A stretch of DNA of 64,000 bases from Alphaproteobacteria bacterium (GCA_965232515.1 CBDDPY010000002.1:5536001-5600000); one strand, 5' to 3'; numbered from the stretch's first letter, positions 14,525-48,192 are shown. Notes: a model not told the origin generated them from the letters alone. Program-made: numbers and translations.

Positions 14525-14546
14525 GTCATCCTGGCGCAGGCCAGGA
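14525..14546 (+). repeat. REP-like palindrome interrupted by IS30 (left part)
   Basis: GTCATCCTGGCGCAGGCCAGGA continues as TCCA at 15587; intact twin at 21518-21544. Confidence 0.85.
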
Positions 14547-15536
14547 GGTGGATTCACATTCGAAGTGCAACAGGTGTTCGATGAAGACCTCGGCTGGGGT
14601 TCTGTAGTCAAGGCATTTCCGCGGCGTGGTGTTGTAGGCGCGCAGGTATTGGTGCAGGCGCCGGCGGTTGAGCTCGTCGAGGTTTGTCTTTCGGGGGATG
14701 AAGCGTCGGAAGCGGCCGATGGCGTTTTCGATGCCGCCCTTCTGCCAGGGGGCATGGGGGTCGCAGAAGTAGGTTTGCATGTCGATGTGCTGGAGTTCGG
14801 TGTGGCGGGCGAATTCGGTGCCGTTGTCGAAGGTGACGGTCTGGCGCAGGTCGGGCGGCAGGTCGGCGAACAGGGCGTGCAGGTGGTCTGCGATGGGCTG
14901 TGCGGCCTTACCCGGTGGCCGGGTGGCGAGGAGGATGCGGGAGAGACGTTCATGGCAGACGAGGATGGCCTGGCCGTAGGTCGCGAACAGCATGAGGTCG
15001 GCTTCCCAGTGTCCCGGGGTTGTGCGGTCGTCGACGTCGGCCGGGCGATCGGCGATGGGCACGCGGCCGGCGATGAAGCTGGCCGGGCTGCCGCCCCTGC
15101 GGCCGCGCCAGCCGCGTTTGCTTTTGCCGCGCGGCAGCAGCAGGCGCCAGCGGAAGTCCTGGGTGCGGGCGAGCTGGGCATAGACGAAGCGGTAGATGCT
15201 TTCATGCGAGATGACGTGTTGGCCGGCGGTGTGGGCGAGCCGGCCGGCGACCTGTTCCGGCGACCAGCCGCGTTTGAGGCCGTCGAGGACGCGGTCGCGC
15301 AAGCTCGGATCGCGTTGCAGGCGGGGCCCGGACCAGCGCCGGGCGCGGGCCTGCTGCTGGGCATAGGCTGGCTTGTAGCCGACCTGTCGGCCGCTGTTGC
15401 GTTTCAGTTCGCGAGAGACTGTTGATGGCGCGCGATCCAGAGCTGCCGCGATTTGCCGGATCGAGCGGCCGGCGGTTTGAAGGCGGGAAATCTCACACCG
15501 CTCTTCCAGTGACAACTGGGCGTAATCGGATCCCAT
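14526..15536 (-). CDS. IS30-family transposase
   Basis: HTH (STVSRELKRN), WSPEQVAG, GHWEADL, TFDNGTEF, PWQKGGIEN, PRKCLDYRTP. Confidence 0.97.
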   Translation of the reverse strand: MGSDYAQLSLEERCEISRLQTAGRSIRQIAAALDRAPSTVSRELKRNSGRQVGYKPAYAQQQARARRWSGPRLQRDPSLRDRVLDGLKRGWSPEQVAGRLAHTAGQHVISHESIYRFVYAQLARTQDFRWRLLLPRGKSKRGWRGRRGGSPASFIAGRVPIADRPADVDDRTTPGHWEADLMLFATYGQAILVCHERLSRILLATRPPGKAAQPIADHLHALFADLPPDLRQTVTFDNGTEFARHTELQHIDMQTYFCDPHAPWQKGGIENAIGRFRRFIPRKTNLDELNRRRLHQYLRAYNTTPRKCLDYRTPAEVFIEHLLHFECESTSWPAPG

Positions 15537-15583
15537 CGCAACACCTCCAACACAAGGTGTTGCACTTCGTTTGTGAACTCAGG
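14547..15583 (-). mobile_element. IS30-family insertion sequence
   Basis: Imperfect 26-bp IRs (GGTGGATTCACATTCGAAGTGCAACA and, as reverse complement, CCTGAGTTCACAAACGAAGTGCAACA), flanked by a GGA duplication at 14544-14546 and 15584-15586. Confidence 0.92.
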
Positions 15584-15605
15584 GGATCCATGTTGGAGTC
15601 AGCGA

Positions 15606-15632
15606 TGGATACCGGCCTTCGCCGGTATGACG
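15606..15632 (-). repeat. CGTC-type REP-like palindrome (partner of the interrupted REP)
   Basis: Reverse complement CGTCATACCGGCGAAGGCCGGTATCCA. Confidence 0.8.
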
Positions 15633-15669
15633 ATGGTTTTGGGCCTCGGCCGAATGTCTCCGCCGCCCC

Positions 15670-16608
15670 TCAAGCCTCCACCGGCACTGCCGCCAGCGTC
15701 GGAATGGCCGGCAGAACCTCGTCGATCAGCCGTTGCGTCTGCTCCACGATGTCGTCCGAGCCGGCGAGCGGCCGCAGCACGAACTTCGACACGCCCGCGG
15801 CGACATAGGCCCGCAGGCAGTCGATGATCGCGTCCGTGTCGCCGACCGCGAAATAGTCCGACGGATCGCGCTTGAAACGCTTGGCGTAGCTCTCGGCTTG
15901 GCGCTTGACCGCTGGCTCGTCCCAACTGCCGAAACGAAACGGCATGCCGGCGCCGTAATGGTCGTCGTCGATGCGCCGGCCGGCCGCTTTGGCCGCCGCC
16001 TTGATGGCGCTGACCACCGGCGCCACCTGGGCCGGCGTTTCCAGGCCGGCGAGCCAGCCGGTGCCGAAGCGGGCCGTGCGCCGGATCGCCGCCTCGCTGG
16101 AACCGCCCAGCCACAGCGGCAACTGCTTCTGCACCGGTCGCGGCGCGATCGTGGCGCCTTCGAGCGTGAAGTATTCGCCGTGGAAGTCGACCTTCTCCTC
16201 GTGCCAGAGCCGGCTGATGATCTCCAGCGCCTCATCGCTGCGCTTGCCGCGGCCCTTGGTCGGCCGGCCCGTGGCCTGCCAATCCGGCGCCAGCACGTGG
16301 CCGAGACCGAAGGCCGGCAGCAGGCGGCCGTCGCTCAGCACGTCGATGGTGGCGCATTGCTTGGCCAGCAGCAGCGGGTCGCGCAGGCCCACCGAGGCGA
16401 CGTTCATGCCGAACTTGAGGCGCATCGTGCCGCCGGCCAGCGCCGCCATCGCGCTCATGCATTCCAGCATCGGCTCGCGCGAGACCAGCCGGTCGGTCTG
16501 CCAGATCGAATCCACCGGGCTGTCCTCGCACAGCGCCACCCAGCGCCAGAAGTCCTTGGCCGTCTCGAACGGAAAGACCGAGAGCCCGAGACCGATCGCA
16601 ATGCCCAT
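15670..16608 (-). CDS. LLM-class flavin/F420-dependent oxidoreductase
   Basis: LRDPLLLAKQCATIDVLSDGRL, FHGEYF, PLWLGG. Confidence 0.9.
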   Translation of the reverse strand: MGIAIGLGLSVFPFETAKDFWRWVALCEDSPVDSIWQTDRLVSREPMLECMSAMAALAGGTMRLKFGMNVASVGLRDPLLLAKQCATIDVLSDGRLLPAFGLGHVLAPDWQATGRPTKGRGKRSDEALEIISRLWHEEKVDFHGEYFTLEGATIAPRPVQKQLPLWLGGSSEAAIRRTARFGTGWLAGLETPAQVAPVVSAIKAAAKAAGRRIDDDHYGAGMPFRFGSWDEPAVKRQAESYAKRFKRDPSDYFAVGDTDAIIDCLRAYVAAGVSKFVLRPLAGSDDIVEQTQRLIDEVLPAIPTLAAVPVEA

Positions 16609-16710
16609 GCCGCTGCCTCCTAAAAGTGAAGGCTATGCTAGCACTGACGCTTGGCCATTGGCTGTTGGAAGTTCAGTTTGGATTGACGGATTGCCGAAGA
16701 CTCGCTTCCA

Positions 16711-16790
16711 GGCCGCGACTGCGGCCCGCCGGCTTATCCGGCGCGCCCGCGCAGGCGCGGACCGTCAGGTCCGCTGCCGTGAGCGCAAAA
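16711..16790. repeat. 80-bp multi-hairpin dispersed repeat, copy 2
   Basis: Identical to 4523-4602. Confidence 0.95.
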
Positions 16791-16793
16791 GAA

Positions 16794-17447
16794 CTAAATC
16801 CCGCTGCGAAGCCCGTTCGGCTCGCGGTGATGCTGCAATTCCGACGGCAGACTGGCGACGGTCATCAGCATGTCGACCGCGCTGCCGTCGCTGGTCAGCG
16901 GCAGGGTCAGCCGCCGCATGGTGTGCGTCTTCCAGCCGTCCGAGAACTGCAGTTCGTGCAGCACCGGCCGGCGCAGCCGCACGGCCTCGGCGAAGGCGTC
17001 GTGGATCAGTGCGGCATAATCCGGCGGCGTCAGGTCGCGGACGCTGCGGCCGGTGACGTCGCGGCCATAGGCCTGCACGACGCCGGTGCCAACCAGGCGG
17101 AACCGGAACGCCGGCAATTGCGGCCGCACGTCGATCAGGTTGATCCAGCCCAGGCTGCGGCACAGGTCCTCGGGCCGGATATCGGCGCGGCCCGGCATCT
17201 CGCGCACGCCGCGGCGTTCCTGCCAGTAGGCATAGACCGCGCGCAGCCGCTCGTCGCGCAGGGCTTCCACCGGCCGGCTGCGCTGACTGACGCGTTCAAT
17301 GGGGAACAGGCGTGGCGACACCGGGCTCGTCACGGCGATGCGCGCAAGATCGTGGGCGTTGAAATCGGCATCGAACCGTCCCTCTTCACCTGGGCTGACG
17401 GACTTGCCGGCTGCTGCAACCGTATCGACGCTGGATATCACGGCCAT
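16794..17447 (-). CDS. PAS_5-type domain protein
   Basis: YAYWQERRG...MPGRADIRP, FRFRLVGT...GRDVTG, RLTLPL. Confidence 0.8.
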   Translation of the reverse strand: MAVISSVDTVAAAGKSVSPGEEGRFDADFNAHDLARIAVTSPVSPRLFPIERVSQRSRPVEALRDERLRAVYAYWQERRGVREMPGRADIRPEDLCRSLGWINLIDVRPQLPAFRFRLVGTGVVQAYGRDVTGRSVRDLTPPDYAALIHDAFAEAVRLRRPVLHELQFSDGWKTHTMRRLTLPLTSDGSAVDMLMTVASLPSELQHHREPNGLRSGI

Positions 17448-17760
17448 GGACCCCCTGGTTGTGCCTCTCGGCTCCGTCGAGCGTCGAGAGGCTAGACTGC
17501 CTATACGGCCCCACAAGGTCGAAAATGGGGCCATATTGCGGCGTGCGCTGTGAAGCGCTTCACAGCGCACCGGGGATTTTCGGGAAACCGCGTCGCCGGC
17601 CGCCACGGAATCGCCTAATTGGTTGACGGATAAGCGGTTTTCGACCCGCTCGAAGCACCGGATTCGACGCAAAGTTAACCGGCCCTTAGCGCCGGCCGGG
17701 GTATCAAGGTCCGTCCGGCGGCGAGGTCCGCCGGGCCGCCAGTGCGGAGGGCGCCGGCCC

Positions 17761-18744
17761 ATGGACCTGACACACTTCTTCAGCAGTATCGCCGCGCCGT
17801 TTTTCTATGTGCTGATGCCGAACCAGCGCATCTTCATGCTCTATCTGCTGAGCGCGCTGGTCCTGGCCTTCGCCGTCTATTTCGTGCGCAGGCGCCGGTC
17901 GACAGCGGCCAGCGATAAAGGATTTTGGTCCTATGTATTGCCGAAATCGGTCTACTGGCACCCCTCGGCACGGGTCGACTACCGCTATTTCATCATCAAC
18001 CGCATCGCCCACGCTCTGATCCTGGCGCCGGTGATCGCGGTCAGCATCGTCGGCGCCAAGTCGGTCGCGGCGCTCGCCACGCTGCTGTTCGGCGAGATGA
18101 GCGCGCCCTTGCTGCCGGTAACGCCGCTGACGACGGCGCTGGTCACGCTCGCCGCCATCCTGGCGTTCGACTTCGGCCTCTACGTCACCCATTACCTGCA
18201 GCACAAGGTGCCGAGCCTCTGGGAATTCCACAAGGTGCACCATTCGGCCGAAGTGCTGACGCCGATCACGGTCTACCGCATGCATCCTGTCGACGACCTG
18301 TTCAGCGCCACGACGGCGGGTTCGCTGATCGGCATTGTGCATGGCGTTTTCGGCTATCTGACGGCCGGCGGGGCCGAGGAATACCGGCTTTTCGGCATGA
18401 ACGTGCTGCTCGCGGTGTTTTACGTGGCCGGCTACAACCTGCGCCATTCGCATGTCTGGCTGCCGCTCAAAGGCGTCTGGGGGCGTCTGTTCATCAGTCC
18501 GGCCCACCATCAGATCCACCACAGCGACGCCGAGCGCCATTACGACCGCAATTTCGGCTTCATCTTCGGCATTTGGGACTGGGCCTTCGGCTCGCTCTAT
18601 GTGCCTGAAAAGTATGAGAAATTGAGCTTCGGCCTGTCCGAGGGCGAGCATCGCGAATATGACGGCGTCTGGCGGCTCTACGCCCTGCCGTTCGTCAAGG
18701 TTCTACGCCGCTTGGCGCCGCCGGTCCGGAGCAGCCGCACGTGA
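17761..18744 (+). CDS. Sterol desaturase / fatty acid hydroxylase family membrane protein
   Basis: His boxes HYLQH, HKVHH, RHSH and HHQIHH; NFGFIFGIWD; TM helices. Confidence 0.92.
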   Translation: MDLTHFFSSIAAPFFYVLMPNQRIFMLYLLSALVLAFAVYFVRRRRSTAASDKGFWSYVLPKSVYWHPSARVDYRYFIINRIAHALILAPVIAVSIVGAKSVAALATLLFGEMSAPLLPVTPLTTALVTLAAILAFDFGLYVTHYLQHKVPSLWEFHKVHHSAEVLTPITVYRMHPVDDLFSATTAGSLIGIVHGVFGYLTAGGAEEYRLFGMNVLLAVFYVAGYNLRHSHVWLPLKGVWGRLFISPAHHQIHHSDAERHYDRNFGFIFGIWDWAFGSLYVPEKYEKLSFGLSEGEHREYDGVWRLYALPFVKVLRRLAPPVRSSRT

Positions 18745-19580
18745 AGCGCCTGCTGGCCGCGTTCGCGGGCGTTATCGGCGGTCTCGCCGTCGCCTACGGC
18801 CTCGCCGTCGGCGGCCCGGTGACGGCGCCGCTTAGCGACCGGGTCGAGATCGGGGCTCTGACATGGGTCGAGCTGCGCGAGCTGGTGCGCCACGGCAAGA
18901 CCACGGCCATCGTGCCCACGGGCGGCGTCGAGCAGAACGGCCCGCACATGGTACTCGGCAAGCACAACCACGTCGTCCGCCATGCCGCCGCGGCCGTCGC
19001 CCGCCGTCTCGGCGACGCGCTGGTGGCGCCGGTCGTCGCTTATGTGCCCCAAGGCGACATCGACCCGCCGTCCGGCCACATGCGGTTTCCCGGCACGCTG
19101 TCGGTGCCCGAGCCCGTGTTCGAGCAGATCCTGGAACACACCGCCCGCAGCCTGCGCGCCCACGGCTTCCGGACCGTGCTCTTCCTGGGCGACAGCGGCG
19201 GCAACCAGGCCGCCCAGACACGGGTCGCCGAACGCCTGGATGCGGCCTGGCGCGACGACGGCGTACGGGTGTTTCACGTCGGCGACTACTACGCGCCGGA
19301 GGCCAACGGACAGATCCGCTGGCTCGAGGATCGCGGTGAGACCCGGGCCGCGATCGGCACCCACGCCGGCATCCGCGACACCTCCGAGCTGCTCGCCGTG
19401 CACCCCGACGGCGTGCACATGGACCGGGCCAGACCGCATGGCGGCTACCGCCTCAGGGACGTCGGCGTGAACGGCGATCCGAGCCGCGCCAGCGCCGAGA
19501 TCGGACGCGCGCTGATCGACTTGAAGGTCGACGCTGCGGTCCGGCAAATTCTGGCCCTACGCAACCAACCGTTGTCGTAG
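18741..19580 (+). CDS. Creatininase family protein with N-terminal signal/anchor
   Basis: LTWVE, PTGGVEQNGPH, FPGT, DSGGN, HAGIRDTS; 4-nt overlap with the upstream gene. Confidence 0.88.
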   Translation: MKRLLAAFAGVIGGLAVAYGLAVGGPVTAPLSDRVEIGALTWVELRELVRHGKTTAIVPTGGVEQNGPHMVLGKHNHVVRHAAAAVARRLGDALVAPVVAYVPQGDIDPPSGHMRFPGTLSVPEPVFEQILEHTARSLRAHGFRTVLFLGDSGGNQAAQTRVAERLDAAWRDDGVRVFHVGDYYAPEANGQIRWLEDRGETRAAIGTHAGIRDTSELLAVHPDGVHMDRARPHGGYRLRDVGVNGDPSRASAEIGRALIDLKVDAAVRQILALRNQPLS

Positions 19581-19649
19581 CGCGACCCCGGCTTTCCCTC
19601 GGTCGCGACCGGCGTTAGGCTGGTCTGGAACGGCCGAAAGGATGCCGGC

Positions 19650-19994
19650 ATGCCGGACACCGAGATCGACGTTGACGCCTTTAAGGCGCTGCTGCTGGCG
19701 CGCCGTCAGGACCTGACCGACACCGCTGCGGCATCGAGCGATGAGCGCTGCCCGGTCGACCTGGACCAGACCAAGGTCGGTCGTTTGTCGCGCATGGACG
19801 CCATGCAGGCGCAGGCCATGAGCATCGAGACCGACCGCCGTCGCAGCCGCGAGATCGCCCGCATCGACGCGGCCCTGAAGCGCATCGAGAGCGGCGACTA
19901 CGGCTACTGCCTGACCTGCGGCGATGAGATCGCCTTGAAGCGTCTGCAGACCGATCCGGCGACGCCCACCTGCGTCGACTGCGCCGGTCGCTGA
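19650..19994 (+). CDS. TraR/DksA C4 zinc-finger protein
   Basis: LDQTKVGRLSRMDAMQ, YGYCLTCG...RL..DP..PTCVDC. Confidence 0.92.
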   Translation: MPDTEIDVDAFKALLLARRQDLTDTAAASSDERCPVDLDQTKVGRLSRMDAMQAQAMSIETDRRRSREIARIDAALKRIESGDYGYCLTCGDEIALKRLQTDPATPTCVDCAGR

Positions 19995-20111
19995 CCGGTT
20001 GGCGGCCCGGTAAACCAGAAATTCGGGTCGACAAAAGAGCACGTGATGGATAGTGCTAAGATCTAAAGCATCGATTTTCGGCACTACGCAACTCAAATTA
20101 ATGACTTAAGA

Positions 20112-20156
20112 TCAGAAGAAGTTTCTGAAATTAGCTTGGGTACCCACAAGGGTACC
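20112..20156. other. Possible relic integrase binding sites
   Basis: AT-rich patch with inverted repeat TCAGAA-N5-TTCTGA (20112-20128) and tandem GGGTACC (20138, 20150) just downstream of the integrase. Confidence 0.4.
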
Positions 20157-20226
20157 AGTGATTTTCCAGTCAGTTCGACCGATTTCGGGCACCTGAGGGC
20201 CGCAAAATCGGCCTGTCGGGCGGGCC

Positions 20227-21402
20227 CTACCGGACCGTTTCGGCGATCCCACGCACGTGCTCACCCCAGGCTTCCAGCGCCGTCCGCATGTCCTCGAAAC
20301 CGCTCCGCGTATCGCCGACATCGACGCCGCCGACGGTCGAGCTGGCGGTCCGGTCGAGGATGTTCCGGACCACCGGCGCCGGCGCCCCCAGCGCCATCAT
20401 TCCGGCCGCGGCGGTGCGGCGCAGGTCGTCCGTGCGCCAGTCCGCGACGCCGGACAGATCACTCGCCCGGCGGGCCGCTTTCGAGAAGCCGGAGACATGT
20501 CGGTCGGGCTTGCCGCGGGCCGGAAACACATAGCGGCTGGTCGTGCGCGGCACCGAGGTCACGACCTCCAGGGCCTGGGCCGAGAGCGGGATCTCGTGCC
20601 CTAAATCCGATGTGCCGGTCTCCGGCGGCACGGTCCAGATCTGGTCGGCGAAGGTAACATCCGTCAGGCGTAAACTCGCCACCTGGTTGCGTCGCTGGCC
20701 GGTCAGCAACAGCAATTTGAACAGCGTTCCAAATGGCCAGGCCATGTGCGCCCAAGCCCGCCACAAGGCCCCGATCTCGGCCTCGTCCAGCACCCGCTGG
20801 CGCCGTACCTCGCGCCCCGGCGCGGTGATGCCGACCACCGGCGTCGCCCGCACCATGTCGACCTCGACGCCCCAGGCGAACATGGTGCGCAGCAGCGACA
20901 GGCGCCGATTGGCGGCATAGCCGTGGCCGCGGGCATTGATGGTTTCGATCACCTCGATGACGTCGCGGCGGCCGATGCCGTCGACCGCGCGCCGGCTCCA
21001 GACCGGCAGCAGGTCGCGTTCGATCATGCGCGCGTCCGACCGCCAGGTGCGCTTCGACCGCTTGGCGTAGCGTTCCACATAGGCCGCGGCGAAGCGCTCG
21101 AAGGTCAGTTCGCCGCCGCGCACCGCCGCGCGCTGGGCGGCCGGGTCCTGACCCTTCGCCACCTCGGCCAGCGTCGCCCGGGCCGCGTCGCGGGCGAGCT
21201 TCAGCGGCAGAGCTGGGAAGTTGCCCAGCGTCAGCCGCCGCTTGCGGCCACCGATCCGGTACATCACCTGCCAGGTCCGCCGCCCCGAGGACGAGATCCG
21301 CAATCCGAACCCCGGCAGCTCCGCGTCCCACAGCTCCACCCGCCCCGCCGCCGGCACCGCGGCATCCATCACCACCCGGTCGTTCAGCGTCTCGGTGGGC
21401 AT
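20227..21402 (-). CDS. P4-type tyrosine recombinase homologue with Arm-DNA-binding domain, apparently catalytically dead
   Basis: N-terminal LPGFGLRISSSGRRTW...LTLGNFP arm domain, TGQRR, DDLRRT; catalytic K, H, H and Y positions replaced. Confidence 0.88.
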   Translation of the reverse strand: MPTETLNDRVVMDAAVPAAGRVELWDAELPGFGLRISSSGRRTWQVMYRIGGRKRRLTLGNFPALPLKLARDAARATLAEVAKGQDPAAQRAAVRGGELTFERFAAAYVERYAKRSKRTWRSDARMIERDLLPVWSRRAVDGIGRRDVIEVIETINARGHGYAANRRLSLLRTMFAWGVEVDMVRATPVVGITAPGREVRRQRVLDEAEIGALWRAWAHMAWPFGTLFKLLLLTGQRRNQVASLRLTDVTFADQIWTVPPETGTSDLGHEIPLSAQALEVVTSVPRTTSRYVFPARGKPDRHVSGFSKAARRASDLSGVADWRTDDLRRTAAAGMMALGAPAPVVRNILDRTASSTVGGVDVGDTRSGFEDMRTALEAWGEHVRGIAETVR

Positions 21403-21517
21403 TTCCGTCCGTTATCCCGACGAATCAGCGATCGCCGGCGCATTATCCACCCATCGCGTAATCGGTCATACCGGCGGAAACGCCCGAAGGGCACTGCACA
21501 GGCCAATTCGCACTCAC

Positions 21518-21544
21518 CGTCATCCTGGCGCAGGCCAGGATCCA
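21518..21544 (+). repeat. CGTC-type REP-like palindrome
   Basis: CGTCATCCTGGCGCAGGCCAGGATCCA. Confidence 0.85.
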
Positions 21545-21671
21545 TTGTTTGTGTTTTTCACGTTGTTTGAAAACCCGCAACAGCCGGCTTTTGCCATTAC
21601 ATAATGTCATTGTAGTTGATTGGGATATTATTCACAGATTGTTATGTCGTTATCCCCGGCGTTCGCGGTAA

Positions 21672-21698
21672 TGGATGCAGGCCTCCGCCAGCATGACG
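21672..21698 (-). repeat. CGTC-type REP-like palindrome (inverted partner, degenerate)
   Basis: Reverse complement CGTCATGCTGGCGGAGGCCTGCATCCA. Confidence 0.7.
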
Positions 21699-21734
21699 GA
21701 TTGGCGTCCAATGGCAGGCGACTCGATCACGGCG

Positions 21735-22553
21735 TCAATCGCCGCCCTTGCCGAACACCGGCGCCCGCTTCTCGATGAAGGCCCGCACGGCTTCGCGGTG
21801 GTCGTCGGTCTGGGCCGTGCGCACCATCAGCACGGCCTCGTGGTCGAGCGCGCTAAAGAAGTCGTCGCTCAGTGCCCGGTCCAGGTTCTCCTTGATATGC
21901 CGCAGCGCCGTGCGCGGCCCCGCTGCCAGCCGCCGCGCTAGCTCGAACGCGGTCTCCTGCAGCTGATCGTCCGGCACCACCTGGTTCACCAGCCCCGTAC
22001 GCTCGCAGGTCGCGGCGTCAATCTTCTCGGCCGTGAACATGAACTGCCGGGCGCGGGCCGTGCCGACCAGCCGCGTCAGCAGCCAGGCAATGCCGTAATC
22101 GCCGCTGAGTCCTACCCGCGCATAGCCCGTGCTGACAAACGCCGAGGCCGCCGCAATGCGGATGTCGCAGGCCAATGCCAACGCCAGCCCCGCGCCCGCC
22201 GCGGGCCCCGGCAGCGCCGCGATGGTCGGCACGCGCACCCGCACCAGCGCGCCCGTCAGTGTACGCTGCCGCTCCTGCAGGTCGGCGACGGCTTCCTCCG
22301 GCGTCATCGTGCGTTTGCGATTGTCGCCCATGCCCTTGACGTCGCCACCGGCGCAGAACGCCGTGCCGGCCCCGGTGATCACCAGCGCGCCGACATCTTC
22401 GTCGTCGCCGCAACTCTTGATCATCCGCCTGAGCGCCGGCGTCAACTCGTTCGACAGCGCGTTCCGCGCCTCCGGCCGGTTCAGCGTCAACGTCGCCACG
22501 CCCTCGCGGACTTCCGCCAATACCTGTTCCGTCCCCGTCTCCAACCGCGTCAT
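21735..22553 (-). CDS. Enoyl-CoA hydratase/isomerase family protein
   Basis: LNRPEARNAL, AFCAGGDV, GAGLALALACDIR, AFIEKRAPVF. Confidence 0.93.
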   Translation of the reverse strand: MTRLETGTEQVLAEVREGVATLTLNRPEARNALSNELTPALRRMIKSCGDDEDVGALVITGAGTAFCAGGDVKGMGDNRKRTMTPEEAVADLQERQRTLTGALVRVRVPTIAALPGPAAGAGLALALACDIRIAAASAFVSTGYARVGLSGDYGIAWLLTRLVGTARARQFMFTAEKIDAATCERTGLVNQVVPDDQLQETAFELARRLAAGPRTALRHIKENLDRALSDDFFSALDHEAVLMVRTAQTDDHREAVRAFIEKRAPVFGKGGD

Positions 22554-22560
22554 GTCCCGC

Positions 22561-22980
22561 TCACGCCCCGTATTTCGTCCGCATGTAATCCACCGACAGC
22601 CGCACCAGCTCCGCCAGCACCTCGAGGTCCACGTCGTCGAGCTTGTTGATGTAGAGGCAGGATTTCCCCGTCCGGTGCTTGCCGAGCCGCGCCATCAGCC
22701 CGTCGTACTGCGAAAACCCCGGCATGATGTAGACCGTCAGCGCCGATTTGCGCGGCGCGAACGCGGTCAACATCCATTCCCCCTCGCGCCCGCTGTCGTA
22801 TTTGTAGCGATACCGCCCGAACCCGACGATCGACGGCCCCCACATCTCAGGTTCTTCGCCCGTCACCCGCCGCATCATCGCCAGCACAACGCGCGCGTCC
22901 TCCCGCCGCCGCGCATGCCCGACCGCATCGATAAACGCGTCCACGCTCACCCCGGTCGGCTTCGTCTTCGGCTCCGCCAC
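22561..22980 (-). CDS. DUF1801 domain protein
   Basis: MWGPSIVGFGRYRYKYDSGREG, FAPRK, LGKHRTGKSCLYI. Confidence 0.88.
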   Translation of the reverse strand: MAEPKTKPTGVSVDAFIDAVGHARRREDARVVLAMMRRVTGEEPEMWGPSIVGFGRYRYKYDSGREGEWMLTAFAPRKSALTVYIMPGFSQYDGLMARLGKHRTGKSCLYINKLDDVDLEVLAELVRLSVDYMRTKYGA

Positions 22981-23051
22981 GTGCTTGCCCCCTGCCGCAC
23001 TTCCGCCAAGCTACCACGCCCCCCGCCGCTCTGTTATACCTGTCCCGCGCT

Positions 23052-23128
23052 GTCCCCGTAGCTCAGTCGGATAGAGCACTGGATTCCTAATCCAGGGGTC
23101 GCAGGTTCGAATCCTGCCGGGGACGCCA
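23052..23128 (+). tRNA. tRNA-Arg(CCT)
   Basis: GTCCCCG/CGGGGAC acceptor stem, D arm, CTGGA-TTCCTAA-TCCAG anticodon arm, GGTTCGAATCC T loop, encoded CCA. Confidence 0.98.
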
Positions 23129-23155
23129 CACTGCTTCGCCGGCCCGCCGCATCAC

Positions 23156-24016
23156 TCACTTCTCCACCGTCGCTTTCTCAATCGCCAGCAGCTTGTCGAG
23201 GCCGATGGTGGCGTGCAGTTCCCGTTGCAGGGCGGACCAGTCGTCAGACGTGCGTGTGCCGTCGCGGAAGCCGTCGGCGAGGTGGGCGTAGACGGATTTC
23301 ATGGCGGCGTAGGCGGCGAGGAGTGGCGTCGAGGTGTCGATCAGGAGCTTGAAGCCGAGGGCGGCCATCTCCGCCGGCGTCAGGCCGATTTGGGCGAGGC
23401 CGCCGGGTGGGCAGAGATACATGAGCGGCGGTTCGAGGCGTTCGCCGATGTGGCGGGCTTCCTCGGCGTTGCGCGGCGATAGGAGCAACACATCGGCGCC
23501 GGCGGCGCGGTAGGCGTCGGCGCGAGTGAGCGCGTCCGACATGTCGCTGGCGCGGACGCCGTTGGTGCGGGCGATGATGATGAAGTCGGGGTTGCGCCGC
23601 GCGGCGACGGCCTCGCGCACCTTCGCGGCCATGAGGTCGACCGGCACCATGTGCTCGATGCCGATATGGTGGTGGGCGCGTTTCGGCAGGATCTGGTCCT
23701 CGATCTCGATGCCGGCGAAGCCCGCGGCCTCCGTCATGCCGATCGTGCGGTGCATGTGCATGGGATCGCCCCAGCCGGCCGCACCGTCCAAAATCAGCGG
23801 CAGGTCCGACACCGCGCCGATGTCGATCCCGGCCTGCGCCATCTCGCTCAGGTTCAGGTTCGCTTCCAGCGCCACCTTCTGATAGCCCGTGGCGCCGCCG
23901 CCGAGATAGAGCGCCTTGAAGCCCGCGGCCTCGGCCAGCTTCGCCATCAGCGGGTTCAGCACCAGCGGCACGCAGACCGGGTCCGCCCCCGCCAACATCG
24001 CGCGCAAGCCTGCCAT
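23156..24016 (-). CDS. Isocitrate lyase/PEP mutase family protein
   Basis: AGFKALYLGG, LPLILDG..GWG, IEDQILPKRAHH, IIARTN. Confidence 0.9.
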   Translation of the reverse strand: MAGLRAMLAGADPVCVPLVLNPLMAKLAEAAGFKALYLGGGATGYQKVALEANLNLSEMAQAGIDIGAVSDLPLILDGAAGWGDPMHMHRTIGMTEAAGFAGIEIEDQILPKRAHHHIGIEHMVPVDLMAAKVREAVAARRNPDFIIIARTNGVRASDMSDALTRADAYRAAGADVLLLSPRNAEEARHIGERLEPPLMYLCPPGGLAQIGLTPAEMAALGFKLLIDTSTPLLAAYAAMKSVYAHLADGFRDGTRTSDDWSALQRELHATIGLDKLLAIEKATVEK

Positions 24017-24052
24017 GATGTCCTCCCCCTTGTTGCCGTCGTTGGCGTGAGC

Positions 24053-25090
24053 TTAGCGGGCGGCGTTGTTGTCCGAAACAGGACTGCGGCAGATGTCGCC
24101 GGCACAGTCGACCGCCTCGGGGTGCATGCCGAACAGGCGGCCGGTGGCGAGGGTGAGGGCGATGCCGGCGAGCATGGCGGCGAAAGCGGGGAGCGCGTGC
24201 GGGGACAGGTTGGGGATGCCGTGCAGGAGCAGCACGTCGTTGCCGCCCGGCACCACGGCGGCGCCGGCGCCCATGGCGAGCCCGCCCGCGAAATGGCGCA
24301 GCCAGACCGGCCGCGGCCTGGCGTCGATCCGCAGGCTGCCGCGTTGCCAGGCCGAGAGCGTCATGCCGGCGAGCACGGCCGCGAAGAGGGCCCAGAACAG
24401 GAGCGGCGGCCCGGCGGCGCCGCCCAGCGCCAGGCGCAGCGTGCGGGTGTAGATCCAGGGGCCGTGCAGGGCGTAGAGCAGGCCGTTCGCGACGCCGATC
24501 AGCGCGGCGGCCGTCGACAGCCGGTAGAGGTCGGCCAGCAGCAGCGCCCGCCAGCCCTGGCCGCGTGGCCGCGTGCGGACAAGGCGCGCCAGCTCCCAGG
24601 CCATCCATGCCGCGAGCGCCAGCAGCAGCCAGGGCGCGCGCGCGTGCGCCGTGGTCGCCAGCGGCGGCGCGTCGGCATTGGGAGGCAGCAGGCCGAGCGT
24701 GGTGCCGGCATCGAGCGCGACCACGCCAAAGCCGAAGCCCAACAATGTGCCGAGCATGCCGAGCTCGCCGCTGCCGAGCCGGTTCAGGGTCGAGATGGCG
24801 CAGCCGCCGTTGACGCCGGCGCCCAATCCGAACAGCAACCCGCCGCCGAGGCCGGCGAGCGTCAGCGCCCAGCTCTCCGGCCTGAGGCGTGCGTCCGGCA
24901 CAAAGAGCGCGATCGCGAGCGTGACGCCCGCGACCCACAGCACCGACTTGGCGAACGCCAGCAGCATGAAGCCGCGCCGCGTGGCGAAGACCTCCTCGAC
25001 CGCCTTCACCGTGCACAGGCCCGCCCGGTGCGCCGAAAAGCCCAGCAGCGCCGCCAGCGCCAGCGACACCGCGCCCGTAACGATTTCCAC
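24053..25090 (-). CDS. YeeE/YedE family sulfur-compound transporter
   Basis: AGLCTV, FGLGAGVNGGCAISTL, PGGND; multiple TM segments; start estimated. Confidence 0.85.
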   Translation of the reverse strand: MEIVTGAVSLALAALLGFSAHRAGLCTVKAVEEVFATRRGFMLLAFAKSVLWVAGVTLAIALFVPDARLRPESWALTLAGLGGGLLFGLGAGVNGGCAISTLNRLGSGELGMLGTLLGFGFGVVALDAGTTLGLLPPNADAPPLATTAHARAPWLLLALAAWMAWELARLVRTRPRGQGWRALLLADLYRLSTAAALIGVANGLLYALHGPWIYTRTLRLALGGAAGPPLLFWALFAAVLAGMTLSAWQRGSLRIDARPRPVWLRHFAGGLAMGAGAAVVPGGNDVLLLHGIPNLSPHALPAFAAMLAGIALTLATGRLFGMHPEAVDCAGDICRSPVSDNNAAR

Positions 25091-25173
25091 CGCCGTCGCC
25101 CCCGATTTCCGGATCCGGTCCCGTCGTCCGTCCGGCGGGCCGCGTTTCGTTGGATGCGGGAAGCCGCGCGCGG

Positions 25174-25599
25174 TTACGCCGGCCGGTCGTCGGTCCGATC
25201 GTGACAGGCGGCGAGGTTGTCCGGTAGCACGAAAACCTCGCGCGCGATGTCGGAGGCGAGGGTTTCGCGGCGATAGAGGCTGTTCAGCAAGGGGTTCGGA
25301 TAGTCGAACAGGTCGGGATTGCGCCGGCGGAAGGTATCCCACGGCGCGTCGCGGCCCTGGCGCTGCATGCGCTCGTTGATGGCGACGATGAAGGCATACG
25401 TGATGGTCTCGTGGTAGAGCCCGTCCTTGCCGAGCGCCGCGGCGTAGCGCTTGAGGCCACCCGAGAACCGTTTCATGGCGTCCGGCAGCGGGGCGTCGCG
25501 CAAGTACAGCCAGGCGAGCCGGATATGGTCGGCATGCCGGAACTTTTCGGGCGGCAGGGTCGTCGCCTCGAAGGCGGCGATGAAGTCGGCGTCGTTCAT
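25174..25599 (-). CDS. Conserved hypothetical protein (FxHxxH...YHETIT type)
   Basis: FRHADHIRLAWLYL, YHETIT, FVLPD; overlaps the stop of the upstream gene. Confidence 0.75.
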   Translation of the reverse strand: MNDADFIAAFEATTLPPEKFRHADHIRLAWLYLRDAPLPDAMKRFSGGLKRYAAALGKDGLYHETITYAFIVAINERMQRQGRDAPWDTFRRRNPDLFDYPNPLLNSLYRRETLASDIAREVFVLPDNLAACHDRTDDRPA

Positions 25600-25901
25600 G
25601 CCGGCGCACCCCGTTTGGCCGGGGTGGGCGGCGCCGCGAACGCGTCCACCAGCCGGTGGCTCGCCGTGGCGTCGAGGTCGAGGCCGTAGACCCGCTTCAG
25701 ATCGGCGATCCGTTGCAGCGTGGCCTCGCCGAACGGGCATTTGCCCTCGAAATTGTGCAGCACGATGCCCTCGATCAGGTCGCCCAGCGTCAGGTCGTGC
25801 AGCTCGGCCACCGCCTTCAGCACCTTTAGCGTCCGCTTCTCGATGCGCACCCCGGTCTGCACCCGCTCAACCCGGATCCGCCCCGCATTGTCGATTGTCA
25901 T
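25596..25901 (-). CDS. Small putative ribbon-helix-helix regulator
   Basis: VERVQTGVRIEKRTLKVLKAVAELHDLTLGDLIEGIV has a strand-helix-helix pattern. Confidence 0.7.
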   Translation of the reverse strand: MTIDNAGRIRVERVQTGVRIEKRTLKVLKAVAELHDLTLGDLIEGIVLHNFEGKCPFGEATLQRIADLKRVYGLDLDATASHRLVDAFAAPPTPAKRGAPA

Positions 25902-25910
25902 GACTAACTT

Positions 25911-25930
25911 GTACCAATGTACCATGGTAC
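25911..25930. promoter_or_regulatory. GTAC-repeat operator candidate
   Basis: GTACCAATGTACCATGGTAC: three GTAC at 8-bp spacing just upstream of the RHH-like gene. Confidence 0.55.
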
Positions 25931-25962
25931 TGATCAAGCCATAGTTGACGTCAGTCCCCAGA

Positions 25963-26045
25963 GGCCGCGACCGCGGCCCGCCGGTCGTCCGGCGCGCCCG
26001 CGCAGGCGCGGATCCCGTTGGGATCCGCTTACCGTGAGCGCAAAA
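25963..26045. repeat. 80-bp multi-hairpin dispersed repeat, copy 3 (divergent)
   Basis: Same scaffold with altered loops and a compensatorily lengthened stem GCGGATCCC/GGGATCCGC. Confidence 0.9.
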
Positions 26046-26085
26046 ACGCCAGAACCCCCGCCCATGAAATGGGCGGGGGTCCTGG
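26042..26085 (-). terminator. Intrinsic terminator-like hairpin
   Basis: Minus strand CCAGGACCCCCGCCCA-TTTCA-TGGGCGGGGGTTCTGG followed by CGTTTTT. Confidence 0.75.
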
Positions 26086-26090
26086 AGAAA

Positions 26091-26214
26091 TTACGTCCCT
26101 GCCGGCCGATGCCGGAACCGTGCGTGGCACCACTGCTGCATTGGGTCGGGTGATGAGTTTATTGGTTCAACACCAAACCACGACGCGGCGCCGGTGCGGC
26201 CGGCAGGGACGCAA
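26091..26214 (-). ncRNA. Candidate structured RNA (124-nt rod-like hairpin)
   Basis: 18-bp closing stem, further internal helices and an AT-rich apex; not matched to any family I recognise. Confidence 0.4.
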
Positions 26215-26228
26215 GTCGGGGTCTTCGT

Positions 26229-26531
26229 TCAGCAGAGCTTCCTGAAAACCTTCACGTTGGCGATAAATGAGTCGGCCGATATGCCGAAGTCCTCGAAGCG
26301 GCCCTGGGCCACCGAAAAGGTCGGCTCGACGATCAGCCCCGCTTTGACGGCGTCGTCCATGGCTTCGTTCAGCGTCCTGACGGCGCCGACGATGGCCGCG
26401 GCGATCTCGGCATCGCGGCCCTGCGCGCCATCGGCCACGGCCGCCAGCGGCGCCGGGCTCTCGGACGGGGAAGCCGGCTTTTTGTCCCGGCCCTTGGCCA
26501 GGTCCAGCCTTGCGATATTGGGGGCGTTCAT
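26229..26531 (-). CDS. Hypothetical protein
   Basis: ATG after a GAGAG RBS; protein-like C-terminus (LNEAMDDAVKAGLIVEP...VKVFRKLC). Confidence 0.7.
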   Translation of the reverse strand: MNAPNIARLDLAKGRDKKPASPSESPAPLAAVADGAQGRDAEIAAAIVGAVRTLNEAMDDAVKAGLIVEPTFSVAQGRFEDFGISADSFIANVKVFRKLC

Positions 26532-26692
26532 ACTCTCGGTCCCTTCGGTAGCCCCGCTGCCTTGCCTACGCCGCAAGGTCGGTGGCTTTGCGTCCCGCCG
26601 TTGCCGACGGTTTGCCGTTTCGAGGACATGGGCGACGGCACGCGCCAACGGCGCTGCGTCCCAGGTCTTGCGGGGACTTTAGCGGACCTGCC

Positions 26693-26708
26693 TTAACGGC
26701 GGGTTAAC
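26693..26708. promoter_or_regulatory. CtrA-binding site
   Basis: TTAA-CGGCGGG-TTAAC is an exact TTAA-N7-TTAAC match in GC-rich intergenic DNA. Confidence 0.65.
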
Positions 26709-26831
26709 GGCGGGTCGACAATTCGTTCCGGGCAGGCCGGATCGCGGTCCGGGGTGACGTCGGTTTGTTTCGTAGAATCAAACGGTTGCGGCTGATATGC
26801 GGTCCGACGGGCCGATCGGCCAAGCCCCCAA

Positions 26832-27350
26832 TCAGTCGCCGAACAGGGCGTCGAACGGCACCGCATAGGTCAGCACCAGGTTCTCGGTCCCCGGGTTGTC
26901 GTCGCCAATCCCGGCATTTGACATATGCGACAACGCGACGCCCAACCGCGACCTGTTGTCGAAGCGGTAGCTGACCTCGATCTGCGAGCGGAACTCCAGC
27001 ACGCTGCCCAGGTCCTTGCTGTCGCCCTCGATATAGGCGCCCGGCGCGAAGCTGGGCGTGACCACGATCCGCCGGCCGAAGAACAGGTCGATCAGCACGC
27101 CGGCATAGACATAGCCGCCGCCGTCGCCGTTCGCCATCACGCCGCCGAACGGCTTGAACATCCACCAGCGCCAGTCCGAACGGTATTCCAGCCGCCCCTC
27201 GACCGTGGTCTCGTCGTCGTTGACGTCGAAGGCGCCCAGGCTGACGGCGAGGAAGTCCGGATCGTCGGCCGCCGCCGGCCCGGCCCCCAGCAGAATGATG
27301 GCGATCAGACCCGCCGCCTGGCGACGCAGCCGCATAAATGAAACAGGCAT
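26832..27350 (-). CDS. Acyloxyacyl hydrolase / PagL-like lipid A deacylase outer-membrane protein
   Basis: Signal peptide, DLGSVLEFRSQ, HMSNAG...NPGTE motif, beta-barrel pattern. Confidence 0.85.
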   Translation of the reverse strand: MPVSFMRLRRQAAGLIAIILLGAGPAAADDPDFLAVSLGAFDVNDDETTVEGRLEYRSDWRWWMFKPFGGVMANGDGGGYVYAGVLIDLFFGRRIVVTPSFAPGAYIEGDSKDLGSVLEFRSQIEVSYRFDNRSRLGVALSHMSNAGIGDDNPGTENLVLTYAVPFDALFGD

Positions 27351-47442: not shown

Positions 47443-48192
47443 TCAGGATGCCTTCAGCATATGCAGGCGGGCGAGCAGCTCGGTCTGGTTGCCGCAGTCC
47501 AGCTTGTCCTTGATGCGCCGGTAGTGCGTATGCACCGTGTTGGTCGAGCGGCCGTTTCGGCGCGCGTAGTCCGGCAGCGCCTCGCCCAGCGCGAGGCATT
47601 TCGCCAGCTGACATTCGGCCGCCGTCAAACCGAGGCTCGCCAGGACCCTGACGAACCGCTCCGTATCGACCTGGTCCCGCTGGCCGGCCCAGCAGAGCGA
47701 CAGGGACCGCTTGATATGCGGCTCCAGCAGCCGCATGACGGTGAAGTGGTCGTCGCTCGCGGCGCCGTCCCGCGCCCGTAGCTGGAACGCCAGGAAGGCC
47801 ACGAAATTGTCGTCCAGGATCGGCGTCTGCGCCGAAATGAAGTAACGCAGTCCGGACGGCGCCAGCAGCTCCTGATAGAACGGGTCGCGGTCCATCTGGG
47901 GCTCATCGATCAGCAGGTGATCGTGGCCGATCACGCCATTCCTGAACGTGTGCAGATAGGCGTTGCGCGGATTGTGACTGTAGTCGCGCGCATAGCGCAT
48001 GGCGTTCGACATATCGAGGCGCACGCTTTCGATCCGCGCGACATGTTTGTCGTCGACGCGGTGGATCTCCATCGTCGCGCCGTCGGCGTTCAGCTCTTCC
48101 GCGATTGTGGTCAGAACCGGATCCCAGGCGATTTCGCCCGTGGCGGCGGCGTACAGGCCGTCGACCGTTTCCAGTATCCAATCGCGTTTCAT
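47443..48192 (-). CDS. LuxR-type HTH regulator with GAF-like N-terminus
   Basis: GLYAAATGEIAW, DPFYQELL, C-terminal GLTAAE...TVHTHYRRIKDKLDCGNQTEL. Confidence 0.85.
   Translation of the reverse strand: MKRDWILETVDGLYAAATGEIAWDPVLTTIAEELNADGATMEIHRVDDKHVARIESVRLDMSNAMRYARDYSHNPRNAYLHTFRNGVIGHDHLLIDEPQMDRDPFYQELLAPSGLRYFISAQTPILDDNFVAFLAFQLRARDGAASDDHFTVMRLLEPHIKRSLSLCWAGQRDQVDTERFVRVLASLGLTAAECQLAKCLALGEALPDYARRNGRSTNTVHTHYRRIKDKLDCGNQTELLARLHMLKAS

Follow-up and report, generated by a model that had tools for sequence, protein, structure and literature searches.

The minus strand of the window, the 64,000-nt stretch of DNA analysed here, carries at 20227..21402 a gene for a heterobivalent P4-type integrase homologue that, judging from its sequence, is no longer able to cut DNA. 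Its homologues indicate that it belongs to a single old alphaproteobacterial clade of pseudo-integrases. Patterns of substitution indicate that the gene is not a decaying relic and is kept under strong selection, and its stop codon is followed by a conserved candidate attL-like site. The best explanation, to which we give a probability of about 0.6, is that the protein is non-catalytic and would form a 'frozen intasome' on this site of its own. The first-pass annotation had read the gene as a dead integrase retained as a DNA-binding protein; that reading is supported by the present analysis, with DNA binding as a prediction.

The coding sequence, an uninterrupted ORF of 391 aa on a strand that the first-pass annotation had not given, was assigned from the reading frame, its Pfam domains, the alignment to canonical relatives, an AlphaFold2 model and fold matches. 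Pfam found the full architecture of a P4-type integrase, all on the minus strand: an arm-type DNA-binding domain (aa 7-93, 21124..21384; Arm-DNA-bind_3, PF13356, E 2e-18), a SAM-like core-binding domain (aa 101-188, 20839..21102; Phage_int_M, PF22022, E 7.5e-8) and a catalytic-fold domain with a degenerate active site (aa 205-357, 20332..20790; Phage_integrase, PF00589, E 3e-14). The three regions had been called from the sequence by the annotation, and the profiles bear this out. The PF00589 score was 53.5 bits against a cut-off of 27.1. Matches to the integrase and Xer models of NCBIfam were all below threshold, with XerC/XerD equivalog scores of 21-27 bits compared with cut-offs of 330-335. 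The AlphaFold2 model, built from 32 homologues, had a mean pLDDT of 86.6 and an integrase fold, which together with the PF00589 profile places the protein in the tyrosine recombinase superfamily; its combination of arm-binding and SAM-like core-binding domains is that of the P4 type. Using Foldseek, the best PDB match of the model was full-length lambda integrase (E 1e-8), and matches to lambda Int, Xer and Tn1549 Int ranged from E 1e-8 to 1e-6. The P4-like arm-binding domains 3ju0, 3jtz and 3rmp were matched with a target-normalised TM of 0.80-0.90 and an rmsd of 1.3-1.5. A phmmer search of PDB sequences gave four hits in all, among them 3ju0 and 3jtz for the arm domain. Codon GC3 of the gene is 0.89, the same as in adjoining genes; host-like GC had been noted earlier. 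A sigma-70-like promoter match, by consensus, lies 40 bp upstream of the start codon (21442..21469, minus strand).

We compared the active site with the catalytic set R-(E/D)-K-H-R-(H/W)-Y of canonical relatives. Two of the seven positions remain, both of them phosphate-binding: Arg-I (R237, in TGQRR) and Arg-II (R328, in WRTDDLRR). The other five are gone: the acidic residue of the canonical QRRxE is Q240, the Lys is T264 (Lys hairpin WTVPPETGTSDLGHEIPL), His-I is D325 (WRTDDLRR), His-II is R351 (ILDR) and the Tyr nucleophile of (I/V)Y(N/D)R is G363 (GGVDVGD). The motifs called by eye in the first-pass annotation (TGQRR and LRR kept; the Lys loop, DDLR, LDR and GGVDVG changed) hold against the canonical relatives. 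The four losses that it reported also hold, but its count does not, since the acidic position, now Q240, makes five of seven. It had further stated that the last ~95 residues are without Tyr; the last Tyr is Y291, and the final 100 residues contain none. A displaced catalytic Tyr, set beforehand as a finding that would count against inactivation, was not found: the Tyr column of 29 canonical relatives, among the best 120 of 2198 homologues, aligns to G363. The segment that formerly held the Tyr (aa 352-364) is a low-confidence loop in the AlphaFold2 model (pLDDT <50), the only long stretch of this kind in the catalytic domain.

A search of 5.8 billion protein clusters for homologues gave 2198 matches, of which the best 120 were listed. 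The alignment took in 117 of these, each of at least 330 aa; P0090, P0095 and P0113 were left out. Among these best 120 matches, active sites were degenerate in all 87 homologues of at least 46% identity (P0001-P0087, 87 of the 117 aligned), and no active allele was found in close relatives, the other result that would have counted against a retained dead protein. Tyr is absent from 65 of the 87, and 22, all of one subclade, retain it but have lost both His. Ten keep His-I without His-II and Tyr, and His-II is missing from 84. The closest canonical homologues in the same set are 30 proteins among P0088-P0120, with 38-45% identity; 29 have the R-K-HxLRR-LNH-Y set, and P0115 ends before the last two motifs. 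The motifs of this group are QRRxE, a hairpin with T-K, HDLRR, LNH and (I/V)Y(N/D)R.

For the tree, 63 sequences were analysed by maximum likelihood with a quick search, and the root was set by an imperfect outgroup. All 35 degenerate rows in it fell on one side of a branch with an SH-aLRT of 95. The group keeping His-I (5 rows) was sister to the other 30 degenerate rows (support 100), and the group keeping Tyr formed one clade (support 98). These results fit a single inactivation in the ancestor, after which residues that had become dispensable were lost piecemeal, with the direction of change suggested by the rooted tree.

Selection was estimated from the DNA of 39 genome loci, using NG86 dN/dS on close, unsaturated pairs. 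Close pairs from five subclades gave values of 0.03-0.17: 0.08-0.17 for L028/L029/L030, 0.165 for L032/L034, 0.136 for L035/L036, 0.156 for L066/L068 and 0.03-0.12 for the closest 12 Anderseniella pairs. The median over 152 unsaturated of 153 Anderseniella pairs was 0.109. All three domains are constrained in close pairs; in 12 such pairs from other loci dN/dS was 0.00-0.14 for the arm domain and 0.00-0.13 for the core-binding domain. Between the window and its nearest DNA relative, L042 (77% aa identity), it was 0.29 for the gene at a dS of 0.54, 0.29 for the arm domain and 0.37 for the core-binding domain. Flanking housekeeping genes in the same genome pairs had dN/dS of 0.01-0.27, with dS broadly similar to that of the gene. 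Because both measures are similar, the gene and its flanks appear to have diverged together. The window copy was also compared with a relative of ~96% identity, known from contigs of two RNA libraries. Over the ~741 coding bases covered there were 22 differences, 18 synonymous and 4 non-synonymous, so neutral evolution of the window copy is not what we observe. Neutral drift of the gene, against which the first-pass annotation had asked for its reading to be weighed, is contradicted by this count and by the close-pair values. The contigs of the relative (X4 and X5) cover parts of the pseudo-integrase gene, with DNA carry-over possible. A poly-A RNA run (X21) was rejected as an expression signal; its 38-nt pile-up inside the TraR gene was spurious.

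The same data bear on the possibility that the gene is all that survives of a genomic island now eroded, its reading frame spared by chance under neutral evolution. Several observations would suit such a relic. Island cargo is not adjacent, an orthologue was found in none of 60 sampled relatives, there is an IS30-like ORF as well as a dispersed repeat in the vicinity, and aa 320-391 are more relaxed in subclades without Tyr (dN/dS 0.19-0.78, from few sites). However, all 87 degenerate homologues among the best 120 of 2198 are at least 341 aa long, most of them 387-430 aa; of the shortest, three are either marked as partial at source or found on very short contigs. The close-pair dN/dS equals that of housekeeping neighbours, the differences in the window's own lineage are 18 synonymous against 4 non-synonymous, and the flanking cis site is conserved. 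We consider a decaying relic highly improbable.

The neighbours of the gene in the window encode a TraR/DksA zinc-finger protein, a creatininase, a fatty-acid hydroxylase, an enoyl-CoA hydratase and a DUF1801 protein; no phage or ICE genes adjoin it, and the earlier statement that such cargo is absent stands, the neighbours being metabolic genes. The IS30-like transposase ORF (14526-15536) is 4.7 kb from the gene. A tRNA-Arg lies 1.65 kb off, beyond two genes, and the gene does not adjoin its 3′ end. The gene thus lacks the setting of P4-type integrases, whose genes mark one end of an integrated element with direct-repeat att sites on both sides, in most cases where a tRNA gene ends. An Rfam scan of 15000-27000 found nothing but a c-di-GMP riboswitch and this tRNA-Arg, with no hit in the intergenic stretches that flank the gene. 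As a guide to where the gene stands relative to the replication origin or terminus, cumulative GC skew along the 7.3-Mb contig gave a weak signal, flat between 4.2 and 5.8 Mb.

No close orthologue was found in the 60 sampled relatives, 32 of which are of the same family; in these 32 the best match had 39% identity, and the genome of the same genus is only 81% complete. Two of 400 evenly sampled genomes of the class gave a match at E 1e-75 or better. By this sampling the clade is lineage-restricted and patchy, and in this genome its presence is patchy rather than demonstrably vertical. Creatininase was found in one of 12 relatives searched for the window's own flanks; these relatives are too distant for synteny, and tblastx of the flanks was discarded as it returned only high-GC noise. 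Within lineages, the gene is syntenic among housekeeping genes. About 18 Anderseniella-type genomes share the order purK, purE, DUF465, DAO oxidoreductase, gene and then acyl-CoA synthetases. In L028-L030 the gene stands between sulfite reductase and CtaA, in L044, L045 and L051 it follows a glutamate-synthase-like gene, and in L066-L068 it follows patatin. The suggestion in the first-pass annotation that the protein may be domesticated has to be tempered for this genome, for which the 60 sampled relatives provide no close orthologue; synteny is conserved within other lineages that carry the clade.

Between subclades the locus differs, and different loci in different lineages imply movement after inactivation, which the frozen-intasome model does not explain. 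The differing loci would suit a protein that is still part of a working recombination system, either as a non-catalytic targeting or architectural subunit with an active partner in trans (as TnsF is for Tn6022) or, gene and att-like site together, as a minimal element mobilised by helper integrases. The clade is sometimes found beside tRNA-Met, tRNA-Phe or tRNA-Glu, one MAG carries two diverged copies (L042 and L036), and Tyr is retained in one subclade (22 of 87 degenerate homologues among the best 120 of 2198). Against such a system, neither a partner recombinase nor a conserved neighbour gene was linked to the clade in any subclade, and synteny together with dS matching the flanks points to long residence rather than recent movement. 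A general tRNA linkage of the clade was rejected, a tRNA being within 8 kb at only 8 of 39 loci and its identity varying (Met, Phe, Glu, Arg). The genome's three canonical P4-type integrases lie by tRNA genes, and GGTACCC tandems are absent from the flanks of these that were examined. Further points for and against this possibility come from the DNA sites described below.

The first-pass annotation had singled out 20100-20160 as a region of interest, and this stretch contains the conserved candidate binding site. On the minus strand, 71 bp after the stop codon, there are two direct heptamers, GGTACCC-N5-GGTACCC (20138..20156), which are candidate arm-type sites; the single heptamers are at 20150-20156 and 20138-20144. 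They are followed by an AT-rich spacer (20058..20137, minus strand), whose sequence varies between loci, and by a core-like imperfect palindrome, AGCAC-N11-GTGCT, containing ATCACGTGCTC (20037..20057, minus strand). The TraR/DksA gene runs convergently, and its stop is 43 bp short of the palindrome. The arm-type repeats and core site that adjoin a P4-type integrase gene thus have candidate counterparts here. The order of gene, arm sites, AT-rich spacer and core appears to match that of the attL P′ arm beside lambda int.

Downstream regions of the pseudo-integrase genes are otherwise unalignable between subclades, and the tandem heptamers are common to them. The consensus is GG(A/T)ACCC in a direct pair spaced 12 bp apart (5 nt between). 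A strict tandem on the gene strand was found within 400 bp after the stop at 33 of 39 genome loci, at distances of 7-137 bp; the pattern matched about 49 times elsewhere in the ~480 kb, many of these being the same site on the other strand. At metagenome loci, some of them near-duplicates of genome loci, a tandem followed the stop in 16 of 16, at 49-147 bp. The strict pattern failed at L042, L044, L051, L045, L066 and L067. Degenerate tandem copies are clearly recognisable by eye in L042, L044 and L051 and are much weaker in L045. L066 and L067 have their tandem before the start, some 30 bp upstream, and the related L068 has one on each side of the gene. Among 18 aligned Anderseniella-type loci the heptamers are invariant save one base in L064, while the N5 spacer varies. 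The ~60 bp past the heptamers at these loci is unalignable, after which a conserved palindrome, GGCAnATGATTTATAATCAnnTGCC, appears. In Anderseniella loci a further heptamer match, 1164 bp downstream, was dismissed because it codes for the AMP-binding motif in an acyl-CoA synthetase.

The core motif in the subclade of the window is ATCACGTGCT(C/A), in places with one base changed, and lies some 90-125 bp further downstream than the heptamers; carriers include L042, L028-L031, L111, L113-L116, L134 and L136. A+T content over the 90 bp that follow the heptamers is 64% in the window and 53-76% in other loci with correctly picked heptamers. An IHF consensus gave no consistent match in the AT-rich spacer. 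Across 19999-20262 the ~96% relative differs by 15 substitutions and 1 deletion, none of them in the heptamers or core, changes few enough that by themselves they give weak support. No second core copy accompanies the site in the window; the sole other match to ATCACGTGCT there, with at most one mismatch, is 28 kb off at 47912.

A different reading takes the heptamer pair of the window as only an intrinsic terminator, a hairpin that serves two convergent genes and has no connection with the protein. The sequence GGGTACCC in the window is self-complementary, and a scan calls a 7-bp stem with a T-rich tail on the plus strand. But the heptamer at most loci is GGAACCC, direct copies of which cannot pair, and it is nevertheless invariant around an N5 of fixed length and variable sequence. 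More distant relatives, moreover, have the tandem upstream of the start. A terminator as the sole meaning of the pair is hardly credible.

The number of sites was determined in whole genomes. GGWACCC has 5 matches in the 64-kb window, 3 of them at 20138-20156. In the 7.39-Mb genome the exact tandem heptamer is present in a single copy, and so it is in all five others searched (3.3-4.8 Mb), always beside the gene. When one mismatch was allowed, this genome had 4 tandem matches, two of which are the site itself on either strand, compared with 16 for a reversed-pattern control. These counts bear on whether the protein is a global transcription factor acting at many promoters through dispersed operators. 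There is a precedent in MrpR (YopR), described in PMC10516654 as master repressor of the Bacillus subtilis prophage SPbeta, which it represses through repeated SPBRE sites. However, the exact tandem is unique in 6 of 6 genomes, the one-mismatch matches fall below the control, the site is 3′ of the gene and outside the promoter, and MrpR is not among the PDB sequence matches. We regard a global regulator as improbable.

Tandem heptamers are not confined to the degenerate clade. A similar tandem, G(G/T)TACCC, precedes the start by 40-110 bp in 20 of 32 relatives that are more remote, mostly ones with canonical motifs. In L102, which has canonical motifs and is frame shifted in its assembly, the sequence GGTACCC-N5-GGTACCC is identical to that of the window. 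The basal group that keeps His-I has upstream tandem sites, with L068 also having one downstream. For tRNA-associated integrases, attL arm sites overlap the integrase promoter, as stated in PMC2951348, and the upstream tandems are in the corresponding position, as arm sites of P4-type integrases are too. The upstream tandems in relatives and the identical tandem of L102 are most simply read as meaning that the heptamers are arm-type sites of this integrase subfamily.

A working recombination system would also suit the existence of relatives that share the heptamers, L102 with its canonical motifs among them even though frame shifted, and of a second tandem heptamer elsewhere in this genome, at C2:6898629, which is accompanied in attR-like order by 11 nt matching the core. 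That second site, however, is 1.34 Mb away and, by tblastn, has no integrase remnant. Together with the missing partner and the long residence described above, this leaves a working system quite unlikely.

The frozen-intasome model, which we prefer, may be put as follows. The N-terminal domain would bind the tandem heptamers, which are one helical turn apart, while the core-binding and catalytic-fold domains would clamp the core-like palindrome. The AT-rich spacer between them would be bendable, and the protein would bridge and loop its own 3′ flank into an intasome that does not recombine. As to the purpose of such a complex, we prefer that an att-type site is kept occupied, in competition with related active integrases using the same heptamers. 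This role is favoured because relatives with canonical motifs have the same heptamers; we give about the same weight to a regulatory or insulating role confined to the locus. Several points count against the model, besides the patchy presence in this genome, the differing loci, the six loci that fail the strict pattern and the lack of a consistent IHF match given above. The heptamers are linked to the protein by association, and what the host would gain from a strong site solely beside the protein's own gene is not obvious. The dN/dS between window and L042 is higher, at 0.29, and the two heptamers of the window can also pair as a terminator-like hairpin.

The clade might go further and act as a device against mobile elements. 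The dead integrase on its unique att-type site would still recognise the arm heptamers and core of active relatives and, as a dominant-negative partner, would poison their intasomes and block integration. We hold this to be possible, though unlikely. If it is true, immunity at the level of integration would be inherited by the host.

Comparison with known systems places the protein closest to P4/CP4-57-type integrases (Arm-DNA-bind_3, Phage_int_M and Phage_integrase), which it resembles in three-domain architecture, in fold and in tandem arm-type repeats by the gene. It differs from them in lacking five of seven active-site residues including the Tyr, in having no island, flanking direct-repeat att pair or adjacent tRNA, in arm sites placed after the stop codon and not in the promoter, and in a gene that sits among housekeeping genes and is syntenic within lineages. 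XerC/XerD and dif offer another tyrosine-recombinase-fold protein paired with one unique chromosomal site. Xer proteins, however, are active and have no arm-binding domain, and dif is not beside the xer genes.

Two dead recombinases that bind DNA were found in a full-text literature search, MrpR and TnsF; dead P4-type integrases were not found by that search. In the classification paper PMC8138268, 'inactive' and 'catalytic tyrosine' do not occur in the main text. In PMC10516654 MrpR is described as a protein that has the recombinase fold and has lost recombinase function, with most catalytic residues missing, Lys and Tyr kept, and CB and CAT domains only. The likeness is a dead tyrosine-recombinase fold with sequence-specific DNA binding, described there and proposed here. 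MrpR is phage-borne with many SPBRE repeats, whereas the window protein has an arm domain, keeps two Arg only, is chromosomal and has one unique site. The pseudo-integrase had no sequence similarity to MrpR in the phmmer search of PDB (four hits), so neither a sequence relationship nor multiple dispersed operators connect the two. TnsF is presented in PMC10293859 as an inactivated tyrosine-recombinase derivative that is the target selector of Tn6022-like Tn7 transposons. It is described there with N-terminal zinc fingers and tandem CB domains, together with TnsABC, in a comM-targeting transposon, none of which is seen here; Pfam and the neighbouring genes showed neither a zinc-finger region nor tnsABC linkage for the pseudo-integrase. 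The clade is distinct from both in being P4-type with an arm domain and its own att-like site, at one site per genome, and in being chromosomal and syntenic. Among the papers searched, none was found to describe dead P4-type integrases with an arm-binding domain that form a conserved clade and retain an att-like site of their own.

Few cases are known in which dead tyrosine recombinases are reused as DNA binders. Genes annotated 'integrase' serve as markers of mobile elements, and the pseudo-integrase clade would give false island calls. If the frozen-intasome model is true, the protein would provide a natural intasome that assembles and never fires, useful for studying arm-core cooperation without chemistry, and could represent a new means by which bacteria fix, silence or fend off integrative elements.

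Besides the candidate attL-like site 3′ of the pseudo-integrase gene, the source genome contains one clean tandem heptamer, GGTACCC-N4-GGTACCC, which lies outside the window at positions 6898629-6898646 of contig C2 (locus L142). This second tandem is located in a 1.2-kb intergenic region, 1.34 Mb from the pseudo-integrase gene. Approximately 30 nt from its heptamers, a stretch of 11 nt (CTATCCATCAC) matches the core region of the attL-like site. This core match is followed by the arms, an attR-like order relative to the attL-like site. No integrase remnant was detected at the C2 site by tblastn.

The heptamers also accompany related genes in other organisms. In a relative with the canonical motifs from an Aliidongia MAG (L102:3091-4500), heptamers identical to those in the window precede the start codon by about 40 bp; as assembled, this gene has a frameshift near codon 110. 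A single Kiloniellales MAG contains two diverged pseudo-integrases, L042 and L036, which are 77% and 53% identical, respectively, to the protein encoded in the window. In both, a heptamer tandem is found 3′ of the stop codon, as a strict match in L036 and as a copy with two mismatches in L042.

Several other features lie around the pseudo-integrase gene. A tRNA-Arg(CCT) gene is present on the plus strand at 23052-23128; since the genes for an enoyl-CoA hydratase and a DUF1801 protein intervene, the pseudo-integrase gene does not adjoin the 3′ end of this tRNA gene. On the minus strand, 4.7 kb from the pseudo-integrase gene, an ORF at 14526-15536 has an HTH_38 domain and a weak match to the rve integrase core (28.5 bits, below the Pfam cut-off of 32.6 bits), and looks like an IS30-family transposase. 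A c-di-GMP-I-GGC riboswitch aptamer was identified with Rfam at 26543-26625 on the minus strand, scoring 62.1 bits compared with a gathering score of 59.

Two small contigs of the source assembly, C3 (5.5 kb) and C4 (10.9 kb), have GC contents of 46% and 42%, respectively, the main contig having 65.5%; they may be foreign to the source organism. In the poly-A RNA run X21, 160 reads align to a 38-nt stretch within the TraR/DksA gene (19792-19829). These reads show 90-95% likeness and all have unrelated flanks; they probably come from another organism's transcript that resembles this stretch by chance.

The 332-bp intergenic region upstream of the pseudo-integrase gene contains a 30-nt inverted repeat (21517-21546 and 21670-21699), whose arms are 87% complementary and 123 nt apart. 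In contigs of sequencing runs X3 and X4, the latter an RNA library of a ~96% relative, the same arms enclose different inner sequences. The arms are therefore part of a dispersed repeat, which is REP- or MITE-like.
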